A stretch of DNA of 64,000 nt from Vermamoeba vermiformis (taxonomy: Eukaryota): positions 1 to 64,000 of the forward strand of contig JBEWZL010000030.1 of the NCBI GenBank assembly GCA_045837725.1, written 5' to 3'. Of the stretch, positions 1 to 30,465 are shown piece after piece (within the stretch, counting starts at the first letter, position 1; each line of letters begins with the position of its first letter). Position numbers and translations under genes: made by a program. Under the pieces are notes generated by a model that saw nothing but the letters and a program-made list of their open reading frames with translations, did not search any database and had not been told where the DNA came from.

Positions 1-16
1 ATCGGACGATCCCTTC

Positions 17-530
17 AGCTGCGTGGCTCGCACCGTCCAAATTCCAGACGCTTTCTCAGCGTGGCTCGCACTATCCCCTCTGCCCTCAGTGCGCCACCAT
101 CCAGTTGTTGGATGGTTCCCTCTGTGCCATGCCTCAGCTCGACACCGTCCAGTTATTGGACGCTTGGCTGGCACCGTCCAAGACTTGGACGCTTTATCGG
201 ACTGTCCCCTCAATGTGTGGCTTGCACTGTCCGGTCTTGGACACTTGGCCAAACCGTCCAAATTCTGGACGCTTTTTTCAGCGTGGCTCGCACCGTTCCC
301 TCTGCTCTCAGTGCCACCGTCCAGTTATTGGACGGTTCCCTTGGTGCCATGCCTCAGCTCAGTGTGGCTCACACCGTCCAGAACCTGGACGCTTGGCTGG
401 TGCTGCATGGCTTGGTGAGTACATTGCACCATCCAAGACTTGGATGCTTTGTTGGTGGCTTGCACTGTCCAGGACCTGTGCAACTTCTTGGCTGGAGCTC
501 ACACTTAGTACTGCTAAGGTCCTGGACACG
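17..530. repeat. Palindromic repeat block A (GTCCA-N5-TGGAC hairpins in a ~220-bp higher-order repeat)
   Basis: About 10 copies, e.g. cgtccagttattggacg (146), cgtccaagacttggacg (175), cgtccaaattctggacg (255). Segment 52-140 recurs at ~276-360. Confidence 0.85.
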
Positions 531-588
531 TTTGCAATTGTAAAATAAAGTTTTGTTTTTAAAAATAGCTCCTTTATTGGGTTTGTGA

Positions 589-868
589 GGGTGTACAGCG
601 TGCCGTACGGGGGGTGCGAGGGGGTGTACAGCGTGCTGTACGGGGGTGCGAGGGGGTGTACAGCGTGCCGTACGGGGGTGTACAGCGTGCTGTACGGGGG
701 TGTACACTGAAGTGTATGGGTGTGAAGGGGCATACACCAAAGTGTACACTAGTGTGAAGGGTGTACAGCATGCTGTATGGGGGTGTACACCAAAGTGTAT
801 GGGTGCGAGGGGGTGTACAGCGTGCCGTACGGGGGTGCGAGGGGGCGTACAGCGTGCTGTATGGGGGG
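589..868. repeat. Tandem minisatellite B (~22-32 bp units, core GTACAGCGTGCTGTAC near-palindrome)
   Basis: Repeated gggggtgtacagcgtg(c/t)... units such as ggggtgtacagcgtgctgtacgggggtgcga; the degenerate middle copies show CG>TG/CA changes. Confidence 0.9.
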
Positions 869-879
869 AAAAATCCTAG

Positions 880-1675
880 CCCCAGCCCTAAATCCTATAA
901 AATCCCACATAGAAGTGATTTTCAGGCAATACTTCTTTGGTGGCGATGCGTCGAAGTCCAACATTGCAAGCCACAGGTGGGGATTTGCCTTGATCACCTT
1001 GACCAAGACTTGTGGCTGTGACTTAGCCACTTTCTGCTGATCGGGGCCATACATGCTGCCACGGAACACCAATATGTTGCGCTATTGGTCAGGCTCAATG
1101 TACCAGGTGCCACCCTCAGTTCCGGTGCTTCGCACGTCGTCGCTCCACTTGTTCATGCCTGCAGCATTGCCAGTTGGGGCGTTGGGTATTTCAGCGTCGA
1201 CCAACGCACGGGCACTACCTTGGCCTGCATTTGCGCCTGCCAGCAGCTTTGCCTCGGCCTCTGCCATCGCTCTCTCGGCCTGGGTGTCGGTGATTCCGTC
1301 ATCCTCGATGCGGACTTGGTCGTCTCCACTCTCAGAAGAAGACTCGTCCGCCCCTTCGTCGACGTGGAACTTGTCGGGTGTGGCAAGCTGGGCTTTGGGA
1401 GCAATGGGTACTGGCGCTGCCTTTGCACGGCCTGGGCTAATGGGCTTCGGCAGGCGCAATGTCATATTGCCCTTGGGAGAGGACTTCTTGGGACCTTGGT
1501 TCGTAGCGCCTTGGCCCTTGGGGCTAACGTTGGTGTTGTTGCCTGCGCCCTTGGCCGGGGGTGCTGACTTGGGGCTGGGAGTTCCGGCTGCGGCTAGTTG
1601 ATCGAGCTCGCTGGCGGACATTTGACGGGGGGCGTTGAAGTTTCGGTTGTTGTTGTTATTACTGTTACAAAGCAA
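880..1675 (-). pseudogene. Low-complexity ORF interrupted by one in-frame TAG
   Basis: ORF 1675-1082 ends EPDQ-TAG and the same frame continues RNILVFRGSMYGPDQQKVAK (ORF 749..1072) until it runs into repeat B. No recognisable domain. Confidence 0.45.
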
Positions 1676-1710
1676 ACATTAGCATTGAGCATTTACACCT
1701 TGAAGCTAAC

Positions 1711-2030
1711 ATCCCGATTGACTGCGGATCGGGGTGACCCAGGCCCTTCCTGATTCGCTGCGGATCGGGGTGGATCCAGACCCTTCCTGATTCGCTGCGG
1801 ATCGGGGTGGACCCAGGCCCTTCCTGATTCGCTGCGGATCGGGGTGACCCAGGCCCTTCCTGATTCGCTGCGGATCGGGGTGGATCCAGACCCTTCCTGA
1901 TTCGCTGCAGATCGGGTTGGACCCAGGCCCTTCCTGATTCGCCGCGGATCGGGATGGACCCAGCCCCTTCCTGATTCGCCGCGGATCGGGATGGACCAGA
2001 CCCTTCCTGATTCGCCGCGGATCGGGGTGA
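1711..2030. repeat. Tandem minisatellite C (36-37 bp, ~9 copies)
   Basis: Unit cccttcctgattcgctgcggatcggggtggatccaga with an internal imperfect hairpin CCTGATTCG-nnn-CGGATCGGG. Dispersed degenerate copies extend to ~2350. Confidence 0.92.
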
Positions 2031-2559
2031 AAATGAAATTTCGCCCGAAATTTCAGGGCACGTGGCTTACCTTGCCATATTTGGGCACTGCGACTTGTTG
2101 TGCTCTGTGTTATGAAGTAATTAAAAATGACTAAGATTCGGTTTCTCGATTCTCTCAAAATTGCCTCCCTGCCTCCCTTCTAAAGGAGGCTTTTTATTTT
2201 TCGCCTCGCCTGGATTCGAACCCGTGCCTTTCAAGGTTTTACAGGAGTTGGCACTATTTCCTGATTCGGACTCTGTCAGGAGCCCAGTGGGCCTGGTATC
2301 CTGATTCGCAACGGATCGGGATTTTTCTTCCTGATTGGTGCCCAATCGGGATGTTTTCAAATTTTGACCAAAGCCATTACCTTTTTTCTGCGTTTTTCAT
2401 GAAATTTACTGGCTTTTTATTTTTACATTGTTTTTGCTGGAAAATACAAGTTTTTAAATATTGCCCTTTTTCGACAAAAACACCTATTCCTATATCCCTA
2501 ACTCCTAGGAAACAGTAATATGTCAGTATTAAATCACCTGTAAACTTGAATTAGAATCT

Positions 2560-3400
2560 CTTCTTGAGTCAGGAAAGGATTATCTCACTGAAGCTTTAAT
2601 CTTTCCCCTCTCTGACTCAGGAAGGGATTTTCCCTCTCTGATTCAGGAAGGGATGCTTAATTTTGAATAACACTTAAAATTTACTGTTCCCTTCCCTATC
2701 TGCAAATATTATACTTACAACATCTTTGCAGATTTTCCTTTTACTGGGTAGCACCTGGGCTGTTTTCTTGTTGTCAAGCGTGGTGTTGTGTTTGTGGGGG
2801 TGAGTAAAATGAAATTTTTTTGTTTCCAAACAGTACTATTGAATTGCCTCCCTTTTTATTTAGGGAGGATATTTTTTCCCTCCCTGACTCAGAGAGGGAA
2901 AGTTTTCTGCAAATTTTAATGTTGCTTCTTGAGTTGAAAATCCTTTACTGCTAAGCAGTTTGTCTTGGGGAATTGGGGGGGAAACCCCCCCACACCCCCC
3001 AGCAACATTTTTTTCCTTTCATAGCCCAGGATGTTTTGATCTGCGCTGCATTTCCTGATAAAATTTGTCCAAATTCGAGTCTCTAGAACATTTTCAATGA
3101 TTGGAGACATTGGGGGGGAAACCCCCCCACACCCCCCAGCAGCATTTTTTCTCATTTTTTCTTTGCTTTTGCCTTGCCGAAACCCCTTCCATCTCTGATT
3201 TTGTCCTGTTTTCGCTGGATTTCCTGCTGTTTTTGTCTGATTTTCCCTCAATTTTGGAATTTTTGCCTCAATTTCCTTCATTTTTCCCTTTGTTCTTTCA
3301 AAATCCCTTCCTTGCTCAGGCAGGGATTGCCTAGTAGGAAGGGATTTTCATCACTCCCTGTCTTTCATATTGAATTCCCTTCTTGAGCCAAAGAAGGATT
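2560..3400. repeat. Dispersed palindromic repeat D (CYTGANTCAGG core with CCCT/AGGG flanks)
   Basis: cttgagtcaggaaagg (2563), ctctgactcaggaaggg (2610), ctctgattcaggaaggg (2636), ccctgactcagagaggg (2883), ccttgctcaggcaggg (3310), cttgagccaaag (3383). Confidence 0.6.
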
Positions 3401-3435
3401 GTCTTTCGAAAACAGCTTTCACAACCCTAACCCCG

Positions 3436-3915
3436 ATGTTTTTTGATATTTCTCATATAAATCGCAACGTCAGAGCCAAGACGCGAGTTCTAGATCGAGC
3501 ACGAAGTAGCTCGCTCGATGACCAGTGCTGAATAAAGAGTAAGTAGTTTATTTCTTTTATCTCATTATTGTTTAATATTCTAACGCATCTTATTTAGGTT
3601 TTACAAATTCACGGTGACTGATCACGAACGCGATCTTCCCGCGTTGGCAGATCTATTACATTGACAATAGTGGATCGGTAAGTATTCATAAGCGTTAGAT
3701 ATTGATCAATACTAACCTGTTATATGCTTAGAAATAGATAACGCAAGCCTACACAAAAATAAACGCGCTCTGAAAGTCCATGCTCGATCCGCTTCAACTT
3801 TTGATTGAGCACATGGATCACACCAGCGGTAAGTTCAATGCGTTTAAAAGAACTAATATAAGCCAATACTAACACTAATTCTTTATTTAGGACTTAGACG
3901 GACGAGGTCATTGTG
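3436..3915 (+). pseudogene. Spliced degenerate gene with three in-frame TGA codons
   Basis: ATG 3436; introns 3539-3597, 3678-3737 and 3829-3890 (gtaagt...ctaac...ag) keep one frame; TGA at 3529, 3615 and 3771. Confidence 0.5.
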
Positions 3916-4444
3916 AGTTAGTTTCTGCTCCACGGCAATTCGTATGTTTTGAACCAGCGGATTTCGAGGGCTGAACAAACCAGCGTCTTCGGATACCGGC
4001 TCCTTCTCTTCCTTTGGCTTCTCCGTATTAACGTTCGTGGATCTTCTACTGGCTTCCTCAGACAGATCGGCAACAGGATTTTATCTACCTCTGCTAATGT
4101 GCGTTAGATTACCGTTCATGATTTATTTTCATCCCGAGCGAGTCTCGCCTGGGATGACTAACTGAAAGTTAAGTTTATTCACTTTAGGATGAATGATTAT
4201 TTTAATATCATCCTTAACGAGTCTCGCTCGGGATGAATTCTTTAAAAAATCTATGGTAAACATAAATCAATTTCAACATAGAGATTGTGTAATCCATCCC
4301 AGGCAAGTCTCGCTCGGGATGACTTCGGAAATAAATTTCGATAAAATTTTACTTACCGTGAGCTTATCCCGGGGGTCCTTGCTGTAGGCGTCGAGGAGCT
4401 TCGGGTTTGGCGACCAGAGGGGTACCTTTGGAATTATTGCTCAT
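3885..4444 (-). pseudogene. Probable degenerate two-exon gene whose intron holds three repeat-E palindromes
   Basis: ATG 4444 MSNNSKGTPLVAKPEAPRRLQQGPPG-TAA-AH, then gtaagt donor at 4356; ctaac/ag acceptor near 4090; coding-like sequence follows (TEKPKEEKEPVSED) but the frame is not cleanly recoverable. Confidence 0.35.
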
Positions 4445-4987
4445 TTTTGATATAAAAAAAACAAAGTTACGGTGTTGAGTTGTGGTGGTGTGTGTGGTAA
4501 GTGAAAGTAAAATGAAAAAAAAAACCGAACAGAAATTTTATAGATTTTCCTCCCTTGCTAATTTTGGGAGGCAATTTCAAATTCTGGCGTAAAATTACAG
4601 TTTTCGCACCCCGTACCTTTCAATTTCCATCCCGAGCGAGTCTCGCTTGGGATGAGAGGAGCAGCTGGGTTTTAAGGATTGAATTGTTGAAAATTCTATT
4701 ATTATGCACCTTAAGTTATTGGATTCTATCCCAAGCGAGTCTCGCCAGGGATGCAACTAATAATTTATGAGTCAGGTTAGAGGATTAATTAATTTCTATC
4801 CCAGACGAGTCTCGCTTGGGATGTCTCGCATTATTTTTAAATACCAACAAGAACGGTTATGGTTCATCCTTAGCGAGTCTCGCTCAGGATGAAAAAATGT
4901 TGAATGGATGACTTATCAGGGGGCTCCGCCCCCTGCACCCCCCTTCTTTTTTCTTTTTCCCATCCTGAGCGAGTCTCGCTCGGGATC
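4130..4987 (+). repeat. Array of eight 27-bp palindromes (CATCCCGAGCGAG-T-CTCGCTCGGGATG) with unique spacers
   Basis: Copies start at 4130, 4209, 4295, 4628, 4727, 4797, 4865 and 4961. Spacers are 52, 59, 306, 72, 43, 41 and 69 bp. Confidence 0.92.
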
Positions 4988-5263
4988 AATAATGGACCCT
5001 CCCGTATTTAGTATAATATCAATGTTTATTAGTGATAGGAATTGTATCCCTAATGCCTAACATCAGTCATTTAGGTCATATTAAATTCTCTTTTTTGTTT
5101 ACCCTTTTATAATACAACAAAGAAAAAAATCAGTAACACTGTCCATTTGACAAATGTTTTGTAACAAATAGCAATTGTTTATTTATTATTGTGTAGTAAT
5201 AAAAATAGAAGATTATTAATTTCATTTTGGTGCTGTTGTCGATTCGATGATTCTCACATATTA

Positions 5264-5760
5264 TTATTTATTTGTATTATTGTTATTTTGGTTAGCACTG
5301 GTTAACAAGTTGGTTATGATTGGTGAAGGAGACACAAAAGAAGCCCCATGAGTGGGTGCCATTGTTTGCAATTTGATATGGCATTTGGGTAACTTGATTT
5401 GCCGGTGAGGTATCCGTACTTGCAGAGCAGGCATTATTATCTTGGGAGACACTGGTGGAGGTTTCTTTGTTGGTTTCTTCATTGATCAATTGGACTTGGA
5501 CTCTGTACTGACCTCTTCAATTTCAAATGCTTCTGTTTTTGCCTTCTTTTTGTTCAGTTTACACTTTGGTTTCAAAAATTGTTGTGCTTTTGGCTTGATG
5601 GTGTCAGGCTCGAGTTTCCTCTTGTTTGAAATAGCACTATACCAGCTAAAGGCAAGCAAAGGCAGGCTTTCCTGTTATTGTTTGTGTTGCAGAGCAAGTT
5701 TGACGTCTGAACTCTGGTTAAGGTAAATTTGTTTGGGGTGGCACATGCTGCAAGTTTTTT
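5264..5760 (-). pseudogene. CpG-depleted coding-like remnant
   Basis: Fragments such as KRKLEPDTIKPKAQQFLKPKCKLNKKKAKTEAFEIEEV and ETNKETSTSVSQDNN broken by stops and frameshifts; very few CpG. Confidence 0.3.
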
Positions 5761-5808
5761 TGTACAGAATTTATGGCACAGATCAACTGTTCAGTTGAAA
5801 CACAGGAA

Positions 5809-10664
<4,856 letters not shown>

Positions 10665-13778: not shown

Positions 13779-15390
13779 CTATTTCCATCCTAAATAGTCG
13801 AAGATGAAATCAATAATGGCCGAAAAAGTCGAAAAATCGTTCTCTGCCAACCAGCTGGATGCTCCGCTCGGAACTTTAGCTGCCGATAACAGAGCTTGAA
13901 GAGCTACTCTAGTAGCATCAACCAATGCTCCTTGAATTTCATAAGCAGCTCGTTCACGTAGCGTAAGGGCTTTGTGCCAATTAACATTAACGATATTTTG
14001 CATCCATCCCTTAAAAACGAGCCCTACAAGTGTATTAATATCGTCGTATAATTTTTTAGTAATTCTTTACCTGGTAAGCTGTAAATATAAATATTTTCAG
14101 AGTTTAAAACTTGATGGGCGTAGCGCAGATCGCGATCCAGCGCAGCGAAGTCAGGATACTGAGTGGGGACTGTAGCATTCAATGGATCACCTCCAGCAGT
14201 TCCCACGGCTGTATTATTTTTTAGAAACCATAATTAGTATTGAAAGAATAAACGCTAAAAATAGCGACATTTGACACGCGTGTCAATTTGTGATCTGCTA
14301 CTTACCCACTGATTTCAGACCTCTGCCATAAGACTTTAAGAATCCAAGGCCTAATGGCAAACCACTCGTATAAAGAAGAGGAATCTCGTCGTCGACAGCG
14401 GTTACATCTACTAAACCAAACAGTAACTCCAACAATTGACTGTTGGCACGTCGCTCGTCATAAATAAACGGAAAGATGTAACTCTCCACTCGGAAGCCAT
14501 CAGAGCGAATTTGATTCGCAAGGGCTGTGTACTAAGAAGGAAAGTAATTCGTTAGTACTGTGGATCCAAATTCAACGAACAGCACTCCATTAGCTAAACT
14601 TGAAGAACACTTACAACAGCTTTAGCATCATTTAACTGTTGCGGATTGATCAATCGATTAGTAGCGGCGGTGATAAATGGCGTCAGATCACCTTGGGCCA
14701 ATGGAGCCACCTCTCTGAAATCTACTTCCAAATCGAGTCCCACTGCATCCCACTTCAAGCCGTATTGCTGAGTCCAGGATTTGAACTGTCAAAACGTGTC
14801 AGAAACAAAGATCAGATCTGATCCACCATTAATGTTGCAATTTACGTACCTGATTATAAGCCGCAACAAATTGAGGAGCGTTGTTAATGTTCGCCCAATA
14901 GCCTTGCGAGTAATCGACGGCTAACCAAGCAGTAGCAGTAATATTGTTTTGGTTCAATAGGCGGATGTAGTTGGCGCGATCAGCAGAAAAATCTCTGATA
15001 GTAACACTAAGATACTGGGATTAGTACAAGTAAACGCGCTTTGAAGCCAAGATATCTTTCTTGTCAATGAAATGATTTGTGCTAAATATGGCTCGAGAGA
15101 TCTTATTGATTACTACGTCAAATGTCAGCACGTGTATCAGCCATTAAATATCTTAGAAGGAGAGATAACTGATTATTTTATACCTGACAGTGGCATTTAA
15201 GGTAATCAGCGCATCAATAACGGCTTGATCTGAGATAAGTGGAATGTTGACTGGATCCACCTCGCAAAAGAAAGTCAACTTCGGTGGCACTCTTCGCCGC
15301 GATGAAGATGGTAGTGCCTTGAGAAGCAACAACGGATTGGACGACCGCTGAAAATAAGACGGCACAAATCAGCACTTGTGTGGCTTTCAT
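13779..15390 (-). CDS. Secreted bacterial-like hypothetical protein, probable TIM-barrel glycoside-hydrolase fold (one +1 frameshift near 15318)
   Basis: Signal MKATQVLICAVLFSAVVQS. Spliced motifs LTFFCE, AWLAVDYSQGYWAN, WDAVGLDLE, DGFRVESYIFPFIYDERRA, AVGTAGG, NIYIYSLPG. Confidence 0.65.
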
Positions 15391-23551: not shown

Positions 23552-24486
23552 TGTATTAATTTCGACTTTGATCTAAACGCAATCCGTTTTACAATGTTGC
23601 ACAATTATTGCCTCGATCTCGCGAGATTAAATATTCGGTGTTGTTGCGCTTCGTCAAATAAAATATTTACAATGAAATTTTCTTCCTTTGAATCGTTGTG
23701 TTCTGCACCGAGGCGGCTAAGTAATATTTTGTAACGAAAATTCAAAATTTTTGTATCGCCCTACTAATTTAGAGATAATCTTGCGTGCAACCGATTGTGA
23801 TTCATTCGATGAATTAATCACGTGATTAATGCTCATATGATATCGGCCGCCAATCCGCGCGGTCAGATCGCATTACGACGAAACCGTAGCTATTATCTGT
23901 TTCTCAACCTACCGTTCTAAAAGTAAGGTCTATTTTGGGCCAAACTGCTACCTCGTCTAATTTCCGTATGTTACGGTAGTATCGCATCGAGGATTGATTT
24001 AAATGCAAAACGTCAAAAGGAGGCACGAAGGTTCCAGAAGGAAATTGTCACGGCTTTTTCGATTAGCTTGACGCTCATGTAGTTCATATGGATGTCAATC
24101 GATTGACGTTGGATATTACTAAATAGGTTGTAAAGAACCTCGGAGTACGTATTGCGAGTCGAGGTGTTCATCTAAATGAGAAACAAGAATAAAATTGTTT
24201 TGATCCCAATGAAGTGACACGGAAAATTAATCGAGGAGGATGTGAACGGTGCCATAAACTCTAAAGAGTAGCTACTTACATTATGAAAACATGAGGCCAC
24301 AGTAGCGTTAGAAATTCTTGAAAGGAGACAGAGATCCAAGCCGAATGTCATTTAATTTGGATGAAACGTTTAGAGCTGCTCTATTTCAAGATTAGCTCTA
24401 GTTTATTCATTACAACTACATGTTGGGTTTAAAGTTAAATAATTCATGGTAAATAAATAATTACGAAACATTACACAACTGACCGC

Positions 24487-27198
24487 TTAGTTGTCGGAGC
24501 TAACTGAGTCCGAATCCTTCTTTGCAGGCGAGCGAGATCGTGATCGGGAACGAGACACTGATCTAGAGGCCGATCTGGAGCGGGGTGAGGGAGATCTAGA
24601 GCGGGATTTGGAAGAAGGGGAGCGCGATCTGGAGCGAGATTTAGAACGGGACTTAGGTGAGGGAGAGCGAGAGCGAGATCTAGAGCGAGATCGGGACTTG
24701 GGGGAAGGGGATCTTGAACGAGAACGAGAACGGGACTTGGGTGAAGGTGATCGTGAACGGCGCTTCTCGTCGCTGGAGACAGACTTGTTGTCCTCTTGGT
24801 GAGCCTCTTCTTCGTGCTTGGGCTCCTCGTGGTGCTCTTCGTGGTGAGCTTCTTCGTGTTTGTGCTCTTCATGGTGCTCGTGATGCTCCTCATGGTGCTC
24901 GTGGTGCTCCTCGTGCTTGGGTTCTTCGTGGTGTTCATGGTGCTCCTCGTGGTGCTCGTGGTGTTCCTCGTGCTTGGGCTCTTCGTGATGCTCCTCATGA
25001 TGGTGGTCCTCATGGTGCTCGTGGTGCTCCTCATGCTTGTGGTCTTCATGGTGCTCGTGATGTTCCTCGTGCTTGTGTTCCTCGTGGTGAGTCTCGTGGT
25101 GTTCATCATGCTTGGGGGCTTCATGATGTTCCTCGTGCTTGTGAACCTCAGCTTGCTTCTCCTCGCGCAACTTCTTGGCCAATTGTTCACGCTCGGCTTT
25201 AGCTTTCTCTTCGCGCTCTTGAGCCTCCTGTTCGGCCTTTTGACGCTCTTCTCTCAACTGCTTCTCGCGCTTTTCAGCTTCGAGTCTCTCTTGCTCGCGC
25301 TTCTCGGCAAATTGTTCAGCCAACGACTTCTTGTTGCCACTGTCTGAAGACTTTTGCGAAGTGTGAGTGGAGGTGGTAGTGCTGGTGCTGGTTTGTTGCT
25401 TGGCAGCCTTGGCCTTGGCTTCACGTTCAGCGCGTTCACGCTCCTCGCGTTCCTTAAGTTCCTAATAGAAGAGTTTATTAATATCGACTACGGCCATACC
25501 TTATCGCGTATGATCATACCTGTTCGCGCTTCTCGCGTTCTTCACGGATTTGCTTTTCCTTGCGCTCTTGTTCCAACTTCTCTTCGCGTTGCTTCTCGGC
25601 AAATCGCTCAGCCAATGACTTGTTGGCACCAGCTAAATAAAAACATTGTCAGAAATTTCCAGATCGAGATCTGATCGAGAAACAACTTACATTCACCGCG
25701 GGGAGTGGTGCTAGTAACGACCTTGTTGGCCTCAGCAACCTTGTTTTCAAAGGCCTTCAATCTATCAGCTAACTTGCCGCCAGACTTAACCTCAGCTTCA
25801 GCTACAAAAATGAATTTTTGAGTGGATTTGCCTTACGCACGCGTTCGATCTGCAATGTTTACTCACCAGTGCGGGGGCTAACAACAGTATTGCTGCTAGA
25901 AGCACCTGATTCGAACTTCTTCTTGGCATCGGCAAAGCCAGCAAGACGAGGCTTTTCGGTGGTAGTAGATGAGCTCGAAACAGCTATTAAAATAAATCAG
26001 CAAATAGCTCAATAATATTCTCATTGATGTCATATACTTACTGGTAGTAGTAGTATTATCGCGAGGAGAAGTAGTAGGCTTGTGAGCGACATGACCGTCA
26101 GTGGCATGAGATGCAGAAGGGCCACCCTTTTGATGAGTAAATTGTTGTTGTTGCTTCTCACGACCGAAACCTAATAACGTATTATTATCATTAAATTATT
26201 ATTTCGTTTGGAGAGAGTGAGATTCGGATTCGCGAGCGAGAAATTTCGATTGACTGCCGTTGATGTCAAATTGATCTACCTGGTTTACCTAGCATATATA
26301 TGTTTATTTGTGTGCTTACCTTCGTCGTAGTTGCCCTTCAATCTGAATAATTGAGTAAAATGAGGCTTGCAATAAACTTGGCCTTGAAGAGAGGCGAAGT
26401 TGCCTAACTTAAGCATTGCATTGCAGTGAGCGCATCTGAAGCAGGTCTATATAGTATACAATTAATATTATGAGTAAACTAGCCAACCAAAATCGAACAC
26501 AAATATCTTTTTTCAATTTGAATCTGCTCGCGATGGCGATTATTTTTGTCATTAAAATGTATATTATACTCTTGTTATGTATATTAACATTCGACTATTA
26601 ATTTTATGCCTTGTATTCAAGATCCAACAAAATCGCAACGGTCAAATTCGTATCTTTTTAACTTTTAAAAAATCCTACACGTAATAAACTATGATTTTAC
26701 CGAAATTAGCTTGTATATAATCAATTAAATGTGTCTTAAATTAAAATCACGCGATTTCTATTTAAATTTACAAAAATAACGAAGATTATTAAATTGTTCA
26801 GATCTGCCACAATAACAAGTAAGTTTGCCGTTATTTTTTACCTTGTGCATCAATGACTTATCATCAACAGAGATCTTTTCTGTAGGATAGACAGTTTTGC
26901 CGCACTTAGCGCACTTGTCTGAGGGACGGGCGATATTCATCTAGACAACAAAACTCTTATTAGACATTTCTCGCGAAAAAATTAACGAAATAATAGTGCA
27001 GTTGGTCAAAATAATTCATGGTATTGATAAAATACAGTTAGCAATTTCGTTTTCTCGGCCCGCAGTATTTTTTCAAACTCGGATGCGAATTTTAACGTTG
27101 GGACCAAAGCAATAGAAAATCGGGGCTAATAGCGCTCTTGTTTGTGTATCAAACGTTATATAACCTACCTTAATGGGTGTAGCTGCAACTTCCGACAT
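24487..27198 (-). CDS. LIM-domain protein (EPLIN/LIMD2-type) with coiled coil, His/Glu repeat and RS-rich tail
   Basis: [13 protein letters not shown]...[11 protein letters not shown]...[24 protein letters not shown] coiled coil; HEEHHE repeats; (RS)nPSPK repeats. Confidence 0.88.
24520..25145 (-). repeat. Coding tandem repeats: [10 protein letters not shown](PK) units and [11 protein letters not shown] units
   Basis: Directly visible in ORF 24487..25323. Confidence 0.9.
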
Positions 27199-27450: not shown

Positions 27451-30271
27451 ATGAAGTCTATCATTCTCGGTGTTCTTTTTGTCGCAACCGTCGCCATTGC
27501 GTTTCCCTCACAATTGACTTACAACATCGGCGATGAGTTTGATTACACTTGCTCAGCCTTAGTTGATAGCAGAGGCCAAATGGCCGACGGATCTAGAACT
27601 AGTGGTTCATATTCCACTTTGAATGGTATTGTCGCTGTCCAAGTAAGTCGAAAACAAAAATATAGCGAAATCTAAAATTATTTTCGAATATTATTGCCGC
27701 TTGTCACCATTAATTTCGTTATATTTGTGATTATTCTAACCTATTTTTAATTTAGGTTCAAGATTTTCAGAACGGAGTTTATTTGTTTGTTATGAACATG
27801 TTTGATGTCACCGTTAATGTGGGTCAAGGTCCTGCTTCAGCTAAGCCTGGAACTCCTTTGACCTCAAGAGACGACGAACCATTGGGTTATGTAAGCTCAA
27901 TTACACTATGATTCAATATCAAACAATAGAGGACACGACGGATGTCACCGTTTTTGGATGTGGACTGTAATTTCAAGATGCTGATGTTCTGCTTGATATT
28001 TAGGACATGTACTTTGCTCAAAACGCTACTGGTGAAATCACTGAGATTTGGTACAACGTAAGTGTCGGAGCTCGCGGAATGAATTTTTCCGGATGGCAGC
28101 GTAATAACAATCGATGCTTTAATAGGAGGATGACTCGCCTTACTTCGTCAACGTTAAGATTAGCGCTATCAACGCTTTCCAAACTCGCGTTGTTGCTCCT
28201 GGTGCTAACCTTATGGCTGCTGAGTCCGATCCCGCTGGTTATCACTACTCCAGCTTCGTTGGTGGCAATCAAGTACGTGATTCGCATCTATATAATACAT
28301 GTCATTATACTAATGTATTTACACTAATAGCAAACTACTTTGTTGGTTTCCAAAACCTTCACCGAAAAGGATTTCACTTCCTTCGCTGACCCCAATGTCA
28401 AGCCTGCCAACTTGAAGCTCAACGCTTTGACTTCTACTTCCGTCCACAACGACGGCTACATCATTGGCGCTTCAGTCAACCAACAAGTTGTTATTACCAA
28501 CGCCAATCCTCAAGCCTCATCTGTTGCATCTCGCACTCGTCGCGCCGCTGCCCCCAACACTAACACCACTGGCTTCGACATGAACTTGTCCTCTGCCGGT
28601 CAATTGACTATTGCTTTGAGCCAAAGCGGTCAAAACTTGCGATTTGGCGGTGCTAAGAAGTTCAACATGGCCGCTCTCACCACATCCAACCTCAAGAAGA
28701 GCACTATGGTCGAGCTCGGTGCTAAGGGCGTTGAGTTCAAGAAGAACTTGGCTCCTGCCATCGAAGTTACTTCTTCCGTCTCCAAGCTCCTCGGCAGCCA
28801 ATTGACTCGCTCCAAGAGATACACCTTGGCCAACAAGTTGATCCGCTTCTTCAACGCCAACCCTGCTCAACTCACTCACTTGACTGCTAAGATCAGTGAC
28901 AAGCTTTCTGCCAAGCAAATCCAATCCATCTTCTACGTTCTTGCTGGTGTTTCCAACGTCAACGCTGTCGCTACCGCCCAAGACGCCTTGACTGTTGCTG
29001 GTCTCAACCACCGCTCTGTTGACCGTCAATTGACTGCTATCTTGGCTCTCGGCAGCAGCTTGCAAGACGTCACTCCCGCCGTCATGACTCGCTTGGCTGA
29101 ATTGGCCCGTGCCAACACCAACCGCAGAGTCTCCACTCACGCTTTGTTGGCTGCCAGCGCCATTCTCGGTCGCACCAAGAACGCTGACGTCATCAACATC
29201 GGCAAGGCCCTCTTGTCTGACAAGTTGAACGGTTTCTTGAACCGCGCTTCTGACGCTGCAGATTTGACTGTCATTTTGAACGCTGTTGGTAACGCTGGTC
29301 CCAACGGTATCTCCTTGGAAGCCAACATCCAAAGACTCGCTCCATACGCCAACGACGAGAAGTACAAGGCTTTGTGGATTAGCACTTTCAGAAAGTTCCC
29401 CGCCACTGAAGTTATGGCCAAGATGCCCGCTAACCTCCGTGCCATCATCGACTCCGCTGCTGCTCCTCGTGATGACTTGTACCCCTTCAACAAGAACTTC
29501 AGCCGTGACTACAAGCTCGGTGGTGAGTCCGTCAACGCCGACTTCAGCTTCGACTTGTTCTTGGGTACCAACTTTGACTGCAACCAACAATACTTCAACT
29601 ACTTGGCCTACGCTGACGTTGAAGCTGTTGTCGATGTCTACGACTACTCCAAGTCTGCTTTTGTCGCCAAGGCCACCTACGGCAAGGCCAACGGTGTTCT
29701 CCAAGGCAACGAGATCTACGTTCGCTTCTGGGACGACGTTTTGTATGATCAACAATTGCCCACCGTTGACTGCAACGAGCACACTTACCCTCTCGGCCAC
29801 ACTGCCCCTGGTTTCTCTGTCTCTTACACCGTCTGGGTTTCCATCATCCCCGTCACCTTCACTGCCTCCGCTGCTCTCGAATTGAACTTGTCTTGGGGCT
29901 GGCAGATCTGCGACTCTCAATTGAGCGCTGAAGTTGAACTCATCCCTGATGCCGCTTTGGTCATCTCCGGTGATGCTGACATTGACTTGTTGATCATCAA
30001 GGCTGGTCTTGAATTGGACGTCGATTTGGACCTCGAAGTTAGACCTCAAGGTTACATCCACGGTTCTGAATGCACTATTGGTGTCGATGTCGAATTGACC
30101 TACGAGCCCTCTAGCGCTCAATTTGACGGCTACTACGCTTGGGATCACTGCAAGTACTGGATCTTCGACTGCTCTTGGGGCAAGCACAACCAACAAACCT
30201 TCTGGTCTTGGAACACCCCTGCTTCCAACGAGATTGTCTACAACCAACAATGGAAGATTGCCAAGAACTAA
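27451..30271 (+). CDS. Secreted, strongly codon-biased protein with a large-lipid-transfer-protein (vitellogenin/MTP)-like N-terminal module
   Basis: Signal MKSIILGVLFVATVAIA. Spliced YFAQNATGEITEIWYN|EDDSPYFVNVKISAINAFQ and ESDPAG; helical region with AILALGS and ILNAVGNAG; beta-rich, Cys-containing C-terminus. Confidence 0.65.
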
Positions 30272-30465
30272 GAAGCCTTGTAATTTTGATGTAGAGTTTA
30301 TATCCTTATGAATAAAGCAAAATTTTCGCAAACGTTGTTTCCCGCGCTTAAGTTACCGTTGGCAATTTAAATTTTCCTCCCGCGAAAAAGAAGTTCATTG
30401 CATTCAATTTTTAATAGTTGAACAATCATTTGTGTATATTATGTGTAAGTAAGGCAAGCCACAAC

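Follow-up and report, generated by a model that had tools for sequence, protein, structure and literature searches.

The first 5,000 nucleotides of a 64,000-nucleotide stretch of DNA from Vermamoeba vermiformis (contig JBEWZL010000030.1, positions 1 to 64,000 of the forward strand; hereafter the window) hold several distinct families of short palindromes, and among them lie the remains of genes of one orphan protein family. Its best description is that of a eukaryotic variant of short palindromic repeats associated with genes, here surrounding dead members of the orphan family. Families of short palindromic repeats that are tied to genes are well known in bacteria, REP, BIME and RPE being examples, and they are hardly described for eukaryotic nuclear genomes.

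The reading we prefer, to which we give a probability of about 0.45, is that a cluster of such genes, of the types represented by the family proteins P0002 and P0047, has its decayed edge in bases 1-5000, and that this edge is riddled with hairpin-capable repeats of 21-31 bp which have proliferated locally and kept their association with particular family members while the unstable cluster decays.

Palindrome families of the first 5 kb

Eight dyad families, A to E together with three newly found ones (F, G and H), are real, occur far above chance and are confined to bases 1-5000. A first-pass annotation, made from the letters alone, had placed A to E here, and their counts indeed stand far above what dinucleotide-preserving shuffles produce (the figures given are means over 100 shuffles). 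Family A (GTCCA-N5-TGGAC, at most one mismatch) has 8 matches in the 64 kb against a shuffle mean of 1.33, and 0 of the 100 shuffles reach 8; its five exact matches all lie within 147-390, and the three with one mismatch are at 14772, 40971 and 63247. The seven B sites (14 strand-matches; shuffle mean 0.28) all fall within 593-862, all 11 matches of C within 1713-2350 and on the plus strand only (0.02), all five of D within 2557-3326 (0.13), and the eight E sites (16 strand-matches; 0.01) within 4131-4986. Units are 21-31 bp long, with 5-11 copies per family for A to E, counted within the window. The claim that these motifs are missing from the other 59 kb also stands, as BLASTN of 1-5400 against 5401-64000 finds no recurrence of any piece and only A has matches there, the three with one mismatch.

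The families differ in how their copies are arranged. Tandem Repeats Finder identifies B as a true tandem array (589-867, periods 32 and 22) and C as another (1722-2029, 37 bp in 8.4 copies, 92% matches), and A carries a higher-order repeat of about 220 bp (32-140 versus 253-360, 86%). The copies of D and E are dispersed, and the spacers between them are unrelated and cannot be aligned. Among the new families, F is a G7-AAA-C7 hairpin followed by CACACCCCCCAGCA, with two copies that are 98% alike and a related one at 4915; G is CCTCCC-loop-GGGAGG and occurs three times (2164-2189, 2847-2868 and 4549-4571); and H, recognised by reading the sequence, is an ATCGAGC/GCTCGAT dyad inside a spliced-looking unit of the plus strand (3491-3517 and 3782-3812). 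To the eye, C, D and E have the outer bases (A/T)TCC(C/T)...(G/A)GGA(T/A) in common and differ in the inner ones. The centres of the D dyads (2565-2891) read TGA(C/G/T)TCA, which we take to be the core of an AP-1/GCN4-type bZIP site; outside these dyads the window has about 20 further occurrences of the heptamer, and the core is therefore not distinctive by itself.

The picture of consecutive, unmixed blocks has to be softened. Each block does have one dominant motif, but the blocks are not perfectly pure: three C-type hairpins stand outside their array (2262-2352), D is interleaved with F and G, and a related copy of F lies in the E block. A simple scan for the density of perfect hairpins did not set the region apart from the rest of the window, since wobbles or mismatches are present in the majority of copies.

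Dead copies of an orphan gene family

The small degenerate genes noticed between the blocks turn out to be two truncated, stop-interrupted copies of one orphan gene family, next to which stands the spliced-looking unit of the plus strand, with no frame. Copy 1 is seen as an open reading frame (ORF) at 1621..1082 on the minus strand that runs on in frame past a single TAG to about 899. It is 98.3% identical to P0002 over 241 residues (tblastn), the family hidden Markov model (HMM) finds it with an i-Evalue of 2.3e-57, and among 5.8e9 proteins its ORF has a single close relative, P0002 (358 residues, 98% identical). P0002 has a glutamate where copy 1 has its stop, and a further 117 residues that are absent from the window; P0001 and P0002 are 98% identical. 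Copy 3 matches the start of P0047/P0050 with 95.5% identity over 67 residues (tblastn; family HMM i-Evalue 1.2e-14), and its similarity to the family stops after 'AVEQKL'. In a six-frame translation of the window the family HMM is convincing only at 902-1537 and 3913-4119, both on the minus strand, four other rows having an i-Evalue of 6. The two pseudogene copies represent two paralog types, between which identity is 28%.

The family itself is small. A HMMER search with P0002 in 1.84e9 representative proteins returned eight at E <= 0.001, P0002 included, and a cluster look-up added three near-identical ones. Their records are in NCBI or Logan, their contigs are at most 8.3 kb long (9.8 kb for P0002), and none is named. 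Pfam has no family for P0001, P0002 or any of the eight aligned family proteins, and the family proteins have no matches in viral contigs. A conserved domain of about 130 residues is common to the members, most of which also have the motif DEPFGNPxxFP. In P0043-P0047 this motif is conserved near the C-terminus and is followed by a basic patch and then by a VE(I/L)xV-like string (IVEIKV, VVELQV); this stretch resembles a short linear interaction motif.

The minus strand also carries three promoter-like modules, whose homology to one another is weak. Each consists of a G hairpin, a CA-rich leader and a short ATG exon with GTAAG at its end, and in two of the three TTCATTTTAC follows 33-34 nt past the hairpin. 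For copy 1 we infer that an exon ATGGCAAG (2078-2071) would splice in frame to 1661, which would place the C array in a first intron of 409 nt. The family HMM found no coding remnant of the family downstream of module 2 in the six-frame window. The plus-strand unit at 3455-3890 has three canonical short introns of the same pattern as the housekeeping genes of the window, and its joined exons hold no open reading frame. Just upstream of the G hairpin of module 1, at 2205-2232 on the minus strand, there is a string that resembles a tRNA T-arm or B box (GGTTCGAATCC), which could be a tRNA-derived remnant or chance.

Palindromes at the ends of family genes

The region is modular, as had been proposed, every module having an iterated hairpin motif of its own. 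These modules are gene units of the orphan family, each with its own palindrome type. The link between type and gene can be followed beyond the window through the C-termini of the family proteins, which are automatic gene models, the palindrome at a gene end being read from their tails. We compared the last eight residues of each protein with the six-frame translation of all 64 kb, using a cut-off of 6 of 8. The tail of P0002, IPIRGQSG, matches at six places, every one of them a C hairpin on the minus strand (for example IPIRGESG). That of P0044, IPSESRRG, matches at ten places, all copies of E, and that of P0047 and P0050, VPSETRLG, at eight, again all E, one of which reads IPSETRLG and then a stop, as in P0047. 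In translation, E palindromes 1-3 give IPSE(S/T)R(L/S)G and then TGA. The tails of the other five clusters (P0041/48, P0042, P0043, P0045 and P0046/49) have no match of at least 6 of 8 in the window, and a palindrome-encoded tail is found in only 3 of the 8 family clusters.

On the evidence of these tails, the frame of the intact gene models enters a C palindrome in P0002 and an E palindrome in P0047, P0050 and P0044, and it ends at the terminal TGA of that palindrome. On the 5' side, 11 copies of C lie upstream of the P0002-type ORF of copy 1, and three copies of E stand directly upstream of the ATG of the P0047-type copy 3, with five more beyond its promoter-like module. As far as these sequences go, C palindromes accompany the P0002-type gene, and E palindromes the genes of P0047/P0044 type.

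Identity between P0047 and P0044 is only 37%. The E palindrome begins 0 codons after the conserved '..TV' in the former and 15 codons after it in the latter, and the tail residues SETR and SESR fit opposite orientations of the E unit. Since both position and orientation differ, repeated acquisition is favoured over inheritance, and the E tails of the two proteins are probably independent acquisitions. Both ends of the E unit read TCA...TGA, and one frame is open whichever way the unit is turned; a copy that closes an ORF would be tolerated because it adds only an eight-residue tail.

Predicted fold of the family protein

AlphaFold models of P0002 and P0047, predicted from alignments of eight sequences, have a mean predicted local distance difference test score (pLDDT) of 61.6 and 66.4, with most 10-residue blocks of the conserved domain at about 75-92. 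In VIA-align the best match of both models is the SANTA domain of M18BP1 (9r6h_B), about 1.6-1.9 Z above the next row. These matches are weak (Z 4.8, root-mean-square deviation 5.3 A over 103 aligned residues, and Z 4.7, 3.5 A over 93), and a Z below 8 may reflect a common arrangement; the RFTS domain of DNMT1 follows at a Z of about 3. Foldseek at E <= 0.001 gave nothing in the PDB for the P0002 model and nothing in a viral fold library for the P0047 model. By sequence, none of the eight members matches SANTA at E <= 10 in Pfam, a PDB profile search returned no relevant match, and the family protein has no sequence relatives in the PDB. A chromatin-type, beta-rich module is suggested by the models as a weak but reproducible lead, and the predicted protein does not look like an enzyme or a transposase.

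Related repeats elsewhere in the reads

Similar short repeats exist elsewhere in the reads of the organism with other flanks. Contigs of the sequencing run X1 cover all 30 bins, and extra contigs that are at least 95% alike pile up on the repeat bins; depths are summed over contigs and are not copy numbers, and since X1 may be the sample from which the window was assembled, its support is not independent. In one X1 contig the E copy of 4130-4159 has different flanks, which resemble a short GTAAGT...TACAG intron. The same run holds a second version of the module 1 and exon 1 piece (2066-2178), alternative joints within A and B, and a variant with a P0002-specific change at 1405 next to a window-type contig, so that both versions of the gene are present in X1, as alleles or as paralogs. 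In a further contig one extra G after 4418 opens the frame of the putative exon 1 of module 3. Single-base insertions or deletions between X1 and the window occur at 4418, 4515, 6134 and 7163, of which 6134 lies inside the intact ORF of an ABC transporter; they reflect either differences between strains or homopolymer errors on one of the two sides. Independent occurrence of the motifs elsewhere, which the first-pass annotation had named as evidence against its reading, is seen in part, as X1 contigs carry a copy of E and other pieces with different flanks.

RNA reads point the same way. Reads and one DNA contig match the element at 869-903 alone, with other flanks on either side, and RNA reads also match the F element at 2972-3014 with other flanks. 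Three RNA runs with the same species label have 7-11 reads each on 1-7500; 26 of the 28 matches are partial, almost all of them on short repeats, and the ABC transporter, taken as a control, has almost no RNA reads in the three runs.

The E motif has no match in viral contigs. Its three matches in metagenome contigs all lie inside a prokaryotic coding sequence and were set aside as unrelated, and its four single matches in contigs of prokaryote genomes, in bacterial metagenome-assembled genomes (MAGs), are about the number that we estimate for chance. A pattern of 19 specified E bases occurs twice, 73 kb apart, on one contig of a Chloracidobacterium MAG (L005 and L007); a repeated gene or some repeat of the bacterium may be behind this, with no relation to the window.

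Layout of the region and its setting

The features of the region are collected in Table 1.

Table 1. Repeats, gene remnants and promoter-like modules in bases 1-5000 of the window.
Feature	Position	Strand	Remarks
Block A	1..530		10 hairpin units CCGTCCA-loop-TGGACG, variable loops, higher-order repeat of ~220 bp; cut by window start
Block B	589..867		tandem 32-bp and 22-bp units; dyad GTACAGC-GT-GCTGTAC and GTGTACAC variant
Dispersed 35-bp element	869..903		abuts break point of gene copy 1
Gene copy 1, truncated P0002-type pseudogene	899..1621	-	in-frame TAG at 1084-1082; last 117 codons absent
Putative first intron of copy 1 (GTAAGC...ACAG)	1662..2070	-	holds C array; by sequence reading
Putative exon 1 of copy 1, ATGGCAAG	2078-2071	-	in frame with ORF; by sequence reading
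Block C, hairpin CCTGATTCG-N3-CGGATCGGG	1712..2029	+	37-bp tandem array, 8.4 copies
G hairpin, promoter-like module 1	2164..2189	-	by sequence
Three C-type hairpins upstream of module 1	2262-2285 (variant), 2298-2322, 2328-2352 (compensatory change)	+	
Block D, three copies of dyad TCCCTYYCTGANTCAGRRAGGGA	2555..2655		
Promoter-like module 2	2713..2868	-	G hairpin 2847-2868; TTCATTTTAC 2813-2804; CA-rich leader; ATGTT then GTAAGT 2723-2713
D copy adjoining module 2	2875..2901		
Two F elements	2972-3013 and 3109-3150		98% alike
Two D-like dyads	3302-3328 and 3374-3400		
Spliced-looking unit	3455..3890	+	TATA-like site 3455; introns 3539-3598, 3678-3732, 3829-3890
Gene copy 3, first 67 codons of P0047-type gene	3919..4119	-	in-frame TAA at 4083-4081
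E palindromes 1-3, 27 bp, consensus CATCCCGAGCGAG-T-CTCGCTCGGGATG	4130..4322		directly upstream of copy 3 ATG
Promoter-like module 3	4357..4571	-	G hairpin 4549-4571; TTCATTTTAC 4516-4507; putative exon 1 4444-4357 ending GTAAGT
E palindromes 4-8, upstream of module 3	4628..4987		F-like hairpin among them, 4915-4937

The window is eukaryotic. From about 5.8 kb on it carries ordinary spliced housekeeping genes, among them those for an ABCB-type transporter, an SNF2 helicase, a Kelch protein, sacsin, a protein with an AMPK-beta CBM, VPS13, an F-box protein and an AlkB-like oxygenase. They are split by many introns of 45-65 nt of the form GTAAG[TA]...YTAAY...YAG (16 matches on the plus strand and 29 on the minus strand). 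The relatives of the sacsin ORF have at most 30% identity and come from plants, fish and unnamed records, and a search with the AMPK-beta CBM piece gave no match. Sequencing runs labelled 'organism A' are the best source of window sequence, and smaller shares come from water, aquifer and soil metagenome runs. Two long low-complexity stretches, 24470-25460 and 28330-30350, are open on both strands and have no Pfam family; the former is a coding region of imperfect tandem repeats of 12-63 bp and the latter a block with 53% GC.

Within the region itself, 25 stop-to-stop frames of at least 80 residues in 1-5400 gave no Pfam domain above cut-off, and no transposase, Rep, integrase or capsid domain. 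Reading the sequence revealed no terminal repeats bounding the 1-5000 block. The window has no telomere array, and its start falls inside array A; telomere-like strings stand isolated at 3421-3432 (AACCCTAACCCC) and within 869-903 (CCCTAAATCC). ARAGORN found no tRNA in the window. Rfam gave nothing at gathering scores; in E-value mode it returned only miRNA-like and snoRNA rows, the best with 27 bits against a gathering score of 97, and we take these as generic hairpin matches. The ratio of observed to expected CpG is 0.41 at 2040-3440 and 0.61 at 1-540 (array A), against 1.11 for 5001-64000; this local depletion could reflect cytosine methylation targeted at repeats or mere base composition. 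A scan of 1-5400 for terminator-like sites placed all 13 hairpins followed by a T run on the plus strand, opposite the family genes, and none on the minus strand, a bias that arises partly because the plus strand is T-rich (AT skew -0.11 to -0.26).

Discussion

If short repeats have indeed proliferated locally in a decaying gene cluster, the palindromes would be selfish or neutral repeats of the foldback type, a eukaryotic parallel to bacterial REP, BIME or RPE. The tandem arrays B and C would spread by replication slippage, and the dispersed copies of A, D and E by hairpin-mediated template switching or short-range copying; each neighbourhood would be dominated by one type because the spread is short-range. 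The gene copies of the window would have been inactivated by rearrangements in this unstable, repeat-rich DNA. Family E shows no covariation (paired cells 83.3%, versus 83.4% in shuffles), and its deviations from the consensus are 19 transitions versus 4 transversions. In A the changes in the arms are always paired (CG/CG in six units, CA/TG in two and TG/CA in two, with no change in one arm only), and palindrome-symmetrising mutation by template switching could be their source. The C hairpin folds at about -11.7 kcal/mol on the plus strand versus -3.6 on the minus strand, in all copies, through G-U pairs.

Several observations weigh against neutral spread. In E, 11 of 16 outer CpGs have been lost, against 1 of 16 inner ones (Fisher p = 6e-4), and the inner core CGAGTCTCG is kept in seven of the eight copies and the outer ATCC/GGAT in all eight while the spacers cannot be aligned. 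In A there are four double changes and no single one, and covariation exceeds all 500 shuffles and all slid controls, although related sequences can exceed shuffles without any structure. In C, the strand-specific G-T wobble is kept in 11 of 11 copies and one dispersed copy (2328-2352) has a compensatory change, most copies being recent tandem duplicates and hence not independent. A functional element would also be compatible with finding one palindrome type at either end of a gene type, and with a gene-end palindrome that persists between paralogs with 37% identity. In addition, the copying mechanism itself has not been observed, and no target-site duplications were seen.

These same points can be turned into an argument for function, in which the palindromes are cis-elements, either gene-end hairpins (for 3'-end formation, or as terminators or insulators) that are repeated upstream against read-through, or operator-like sites possibly bound by the family's own SANTA-like proteins and diverging with each paralog. 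We consider function of either kind the main rival of our reading, possible but rather unlikely. The presence of one type both 5' of a gene type and at its 3' end, the conserved ends and core of E around a variable middle, the paired changes in A and the persistence of E across distant paralogs all speak for it; C, D and E are alike in their outer bases and different inside, as expected from diverged specificity, and the best fold match of both models is a module of a chromatin protein. However, E lacks compensatory evolution, a copy of it sits in an unrelated context in X1, the palindrome of the tail differs in position and orientation between P0047 and P0044, and only 3 of 8 clusters have such a tail at all. 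The expansion of C to eight tandem copies resembles slippage rather than design, and the SANTA match stays below a Z of 5. It is tempting to go one step further and to imagine a system of genes with cognate hairpins, in which each SANTA-like paralog would recognise the palindrome that brackets its own gene, in several copies at the 5' side and in one that overlaps the stop codon, with protein and palindrome diversifying together, be it as a selfish cassette, comparable to REPIN-RAYT or nuclease-hairpin cassettes of bacteria, or as an autoregulatory or chromatin-marking operator. This we regard as improbable.

That the repeats are common satellites or minisatellites at the border of a heterochromatic or subtelomeric region, with incidental dyads and a chance proximity to the gene family, is likewise improbable in our judgement. 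The head-to-tail arrays B and C, the higher-order repeat of A, the start of the window inside that array, the variants of array length and arrangement in X1 and the low local CpG ratios would all suit such a border. Yet the C and E palindromes are tied by the protein tails to family genes on other contigs, for which coincidence is no explanation; the copies of D and E form no tandem arrays and have unrelated spacers, and eight distinct dyad families in 5 kb exceed what would be incidental. The first-pass annotation had proposed a composite mobile, virus-like or subtelomeric element. In a mobile or virus-like one, the family genes would be cargo or unrecognised mobility proteins and the palindromes subterminal recognition sites. 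Some DNA transposons carry subterminal repeats in several copies, and here too several copies of one short motif lie on both sides of the genes, which belong to an orphan family with few members. The annotation itself had seen no transposase or viral hallmark gene, and Pfam agrees, giving nothing above cut-off in the 25 frames or in P0001 and P0002. The virus-like part of the proposal is not supported, given the host-type introns (GTAAGT...CTAAC...YAG), three empty scans of viral contigs and the empty result from the viral fold library; the composite transposon fares no better, with no bounding terminal repeats, no target-site duplications at the E copies and a best fold match to a chromatin module instead of an enzyme. 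We hold an element of this kind to be very unlikely. Least probable of all, and hardly to be reckoned with, is an artefact of collapsed or mis-joined repeats in the assembly. The window does start in a satellite, and single-base differences from X1 contigs occur in homopolymers (4418 and 4515), but X1 covers every bin, even if it is possibly the window's own source sample, and one X1 contig (874-1365) spans the gene into the 869-903 element with no differences, reaching 26-30 letters beyond the break (899-903), which is 1-5 short of a 31-letter criterion.

Local proliferation in a decaying gene cluster therefore remains the reading that we prefer. If the link between palindrome and paralog holds genome-wide, the organism would offer a natural system in which to study how hairpin repeats spread locally, how reading frames tolerate them, and whether they serve as signals at gene ends or as binding sites for proteins. 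Should the link fail, the region is a plain repeat-rich border with dead gene copies.

Comparison with known systems

In the literature, which we did not search exhaustively, we found no nuclear eukaryotic case of short palindromes specific to a gene family, the cases being organellar, bacterial or from giant viruses. Minisatellites resemble B and C in their head-to-tail order and periods of 22-37 bp, and A in its higher-order repeat, but they leave unexplained the dispersed copies of D and E and the match of C and E to C-termini on other contigs. Miniature inverted-repeat transposable elements (MITEs), foldback elements and non-autonomous transposons that bear tandem repeats are, like the palindromes described here, short, hairpin-forming, dispersed in introns and gene flanks and without coding capacity of their own. 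However, our units are far shorter and have no internal sequence between the arms, the whole unit being the inverted repeat; an alignment with flanks reveals no duplicated flank at any of the eight E copies, and no linked transposase is known. An old paper on foldback DNA of the Physarum type, taken as a lead, is not relevant to the region.

A palindrome at the end of a gene, here read from gene models, recalls the 'hairpin rule' of the Mimiviridae, described in one account as polyadenylation at hairpin-forming palindromes that terminate viral transcripts (PMC4402537). The locus studied here is not viral, as judged from its host-type introns and the absence of viral matches. Moreover, the viruses have an unrelated palindrome for each gene, whereas here near-identical families of up to 11 copies also lie on the 5' side of genes.

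Besides the hairpin rule, the closest analogues are bacterial repeats. RAYT genes are flanked by their own REPs. According to the account we consulted, REPs are imperfect palindromes of 20-40 bp with a conserved GTAG or CGTC tag at one end (PMC3733652). The REP/BIME and REPIN-RAYT systems resemble the present region in the size and imperfection of their palindromes, in the coexistence of several families in one genome, in clustered copies of conserved orientation with strand-specific imperfections, and in the association of each family with a particular gene. As for the tag, E, C and D start with (A/T)TCC, and A contains CGTC, but inside both arms. Here, in contrast, the host is eukaryotic and has spliceosomal introns, the protein family linked to the palindromes has no HUH/Y1 transposase domain and has SANTA as its best, though weak, fold match, and some copies of the palindromes read as coding sequence. 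It is in this last respect that RPEs come near, being short palindromic repeats that can lie inside protein-coding frames and be translated without destroying the gene. RPEs are bacterial, measure 100-150 bp and are internal in-frame insertions, whereas the elements of the window measure 21-31 bp, contribute the last eight codons together with the stop, and show specificity for a gene family.

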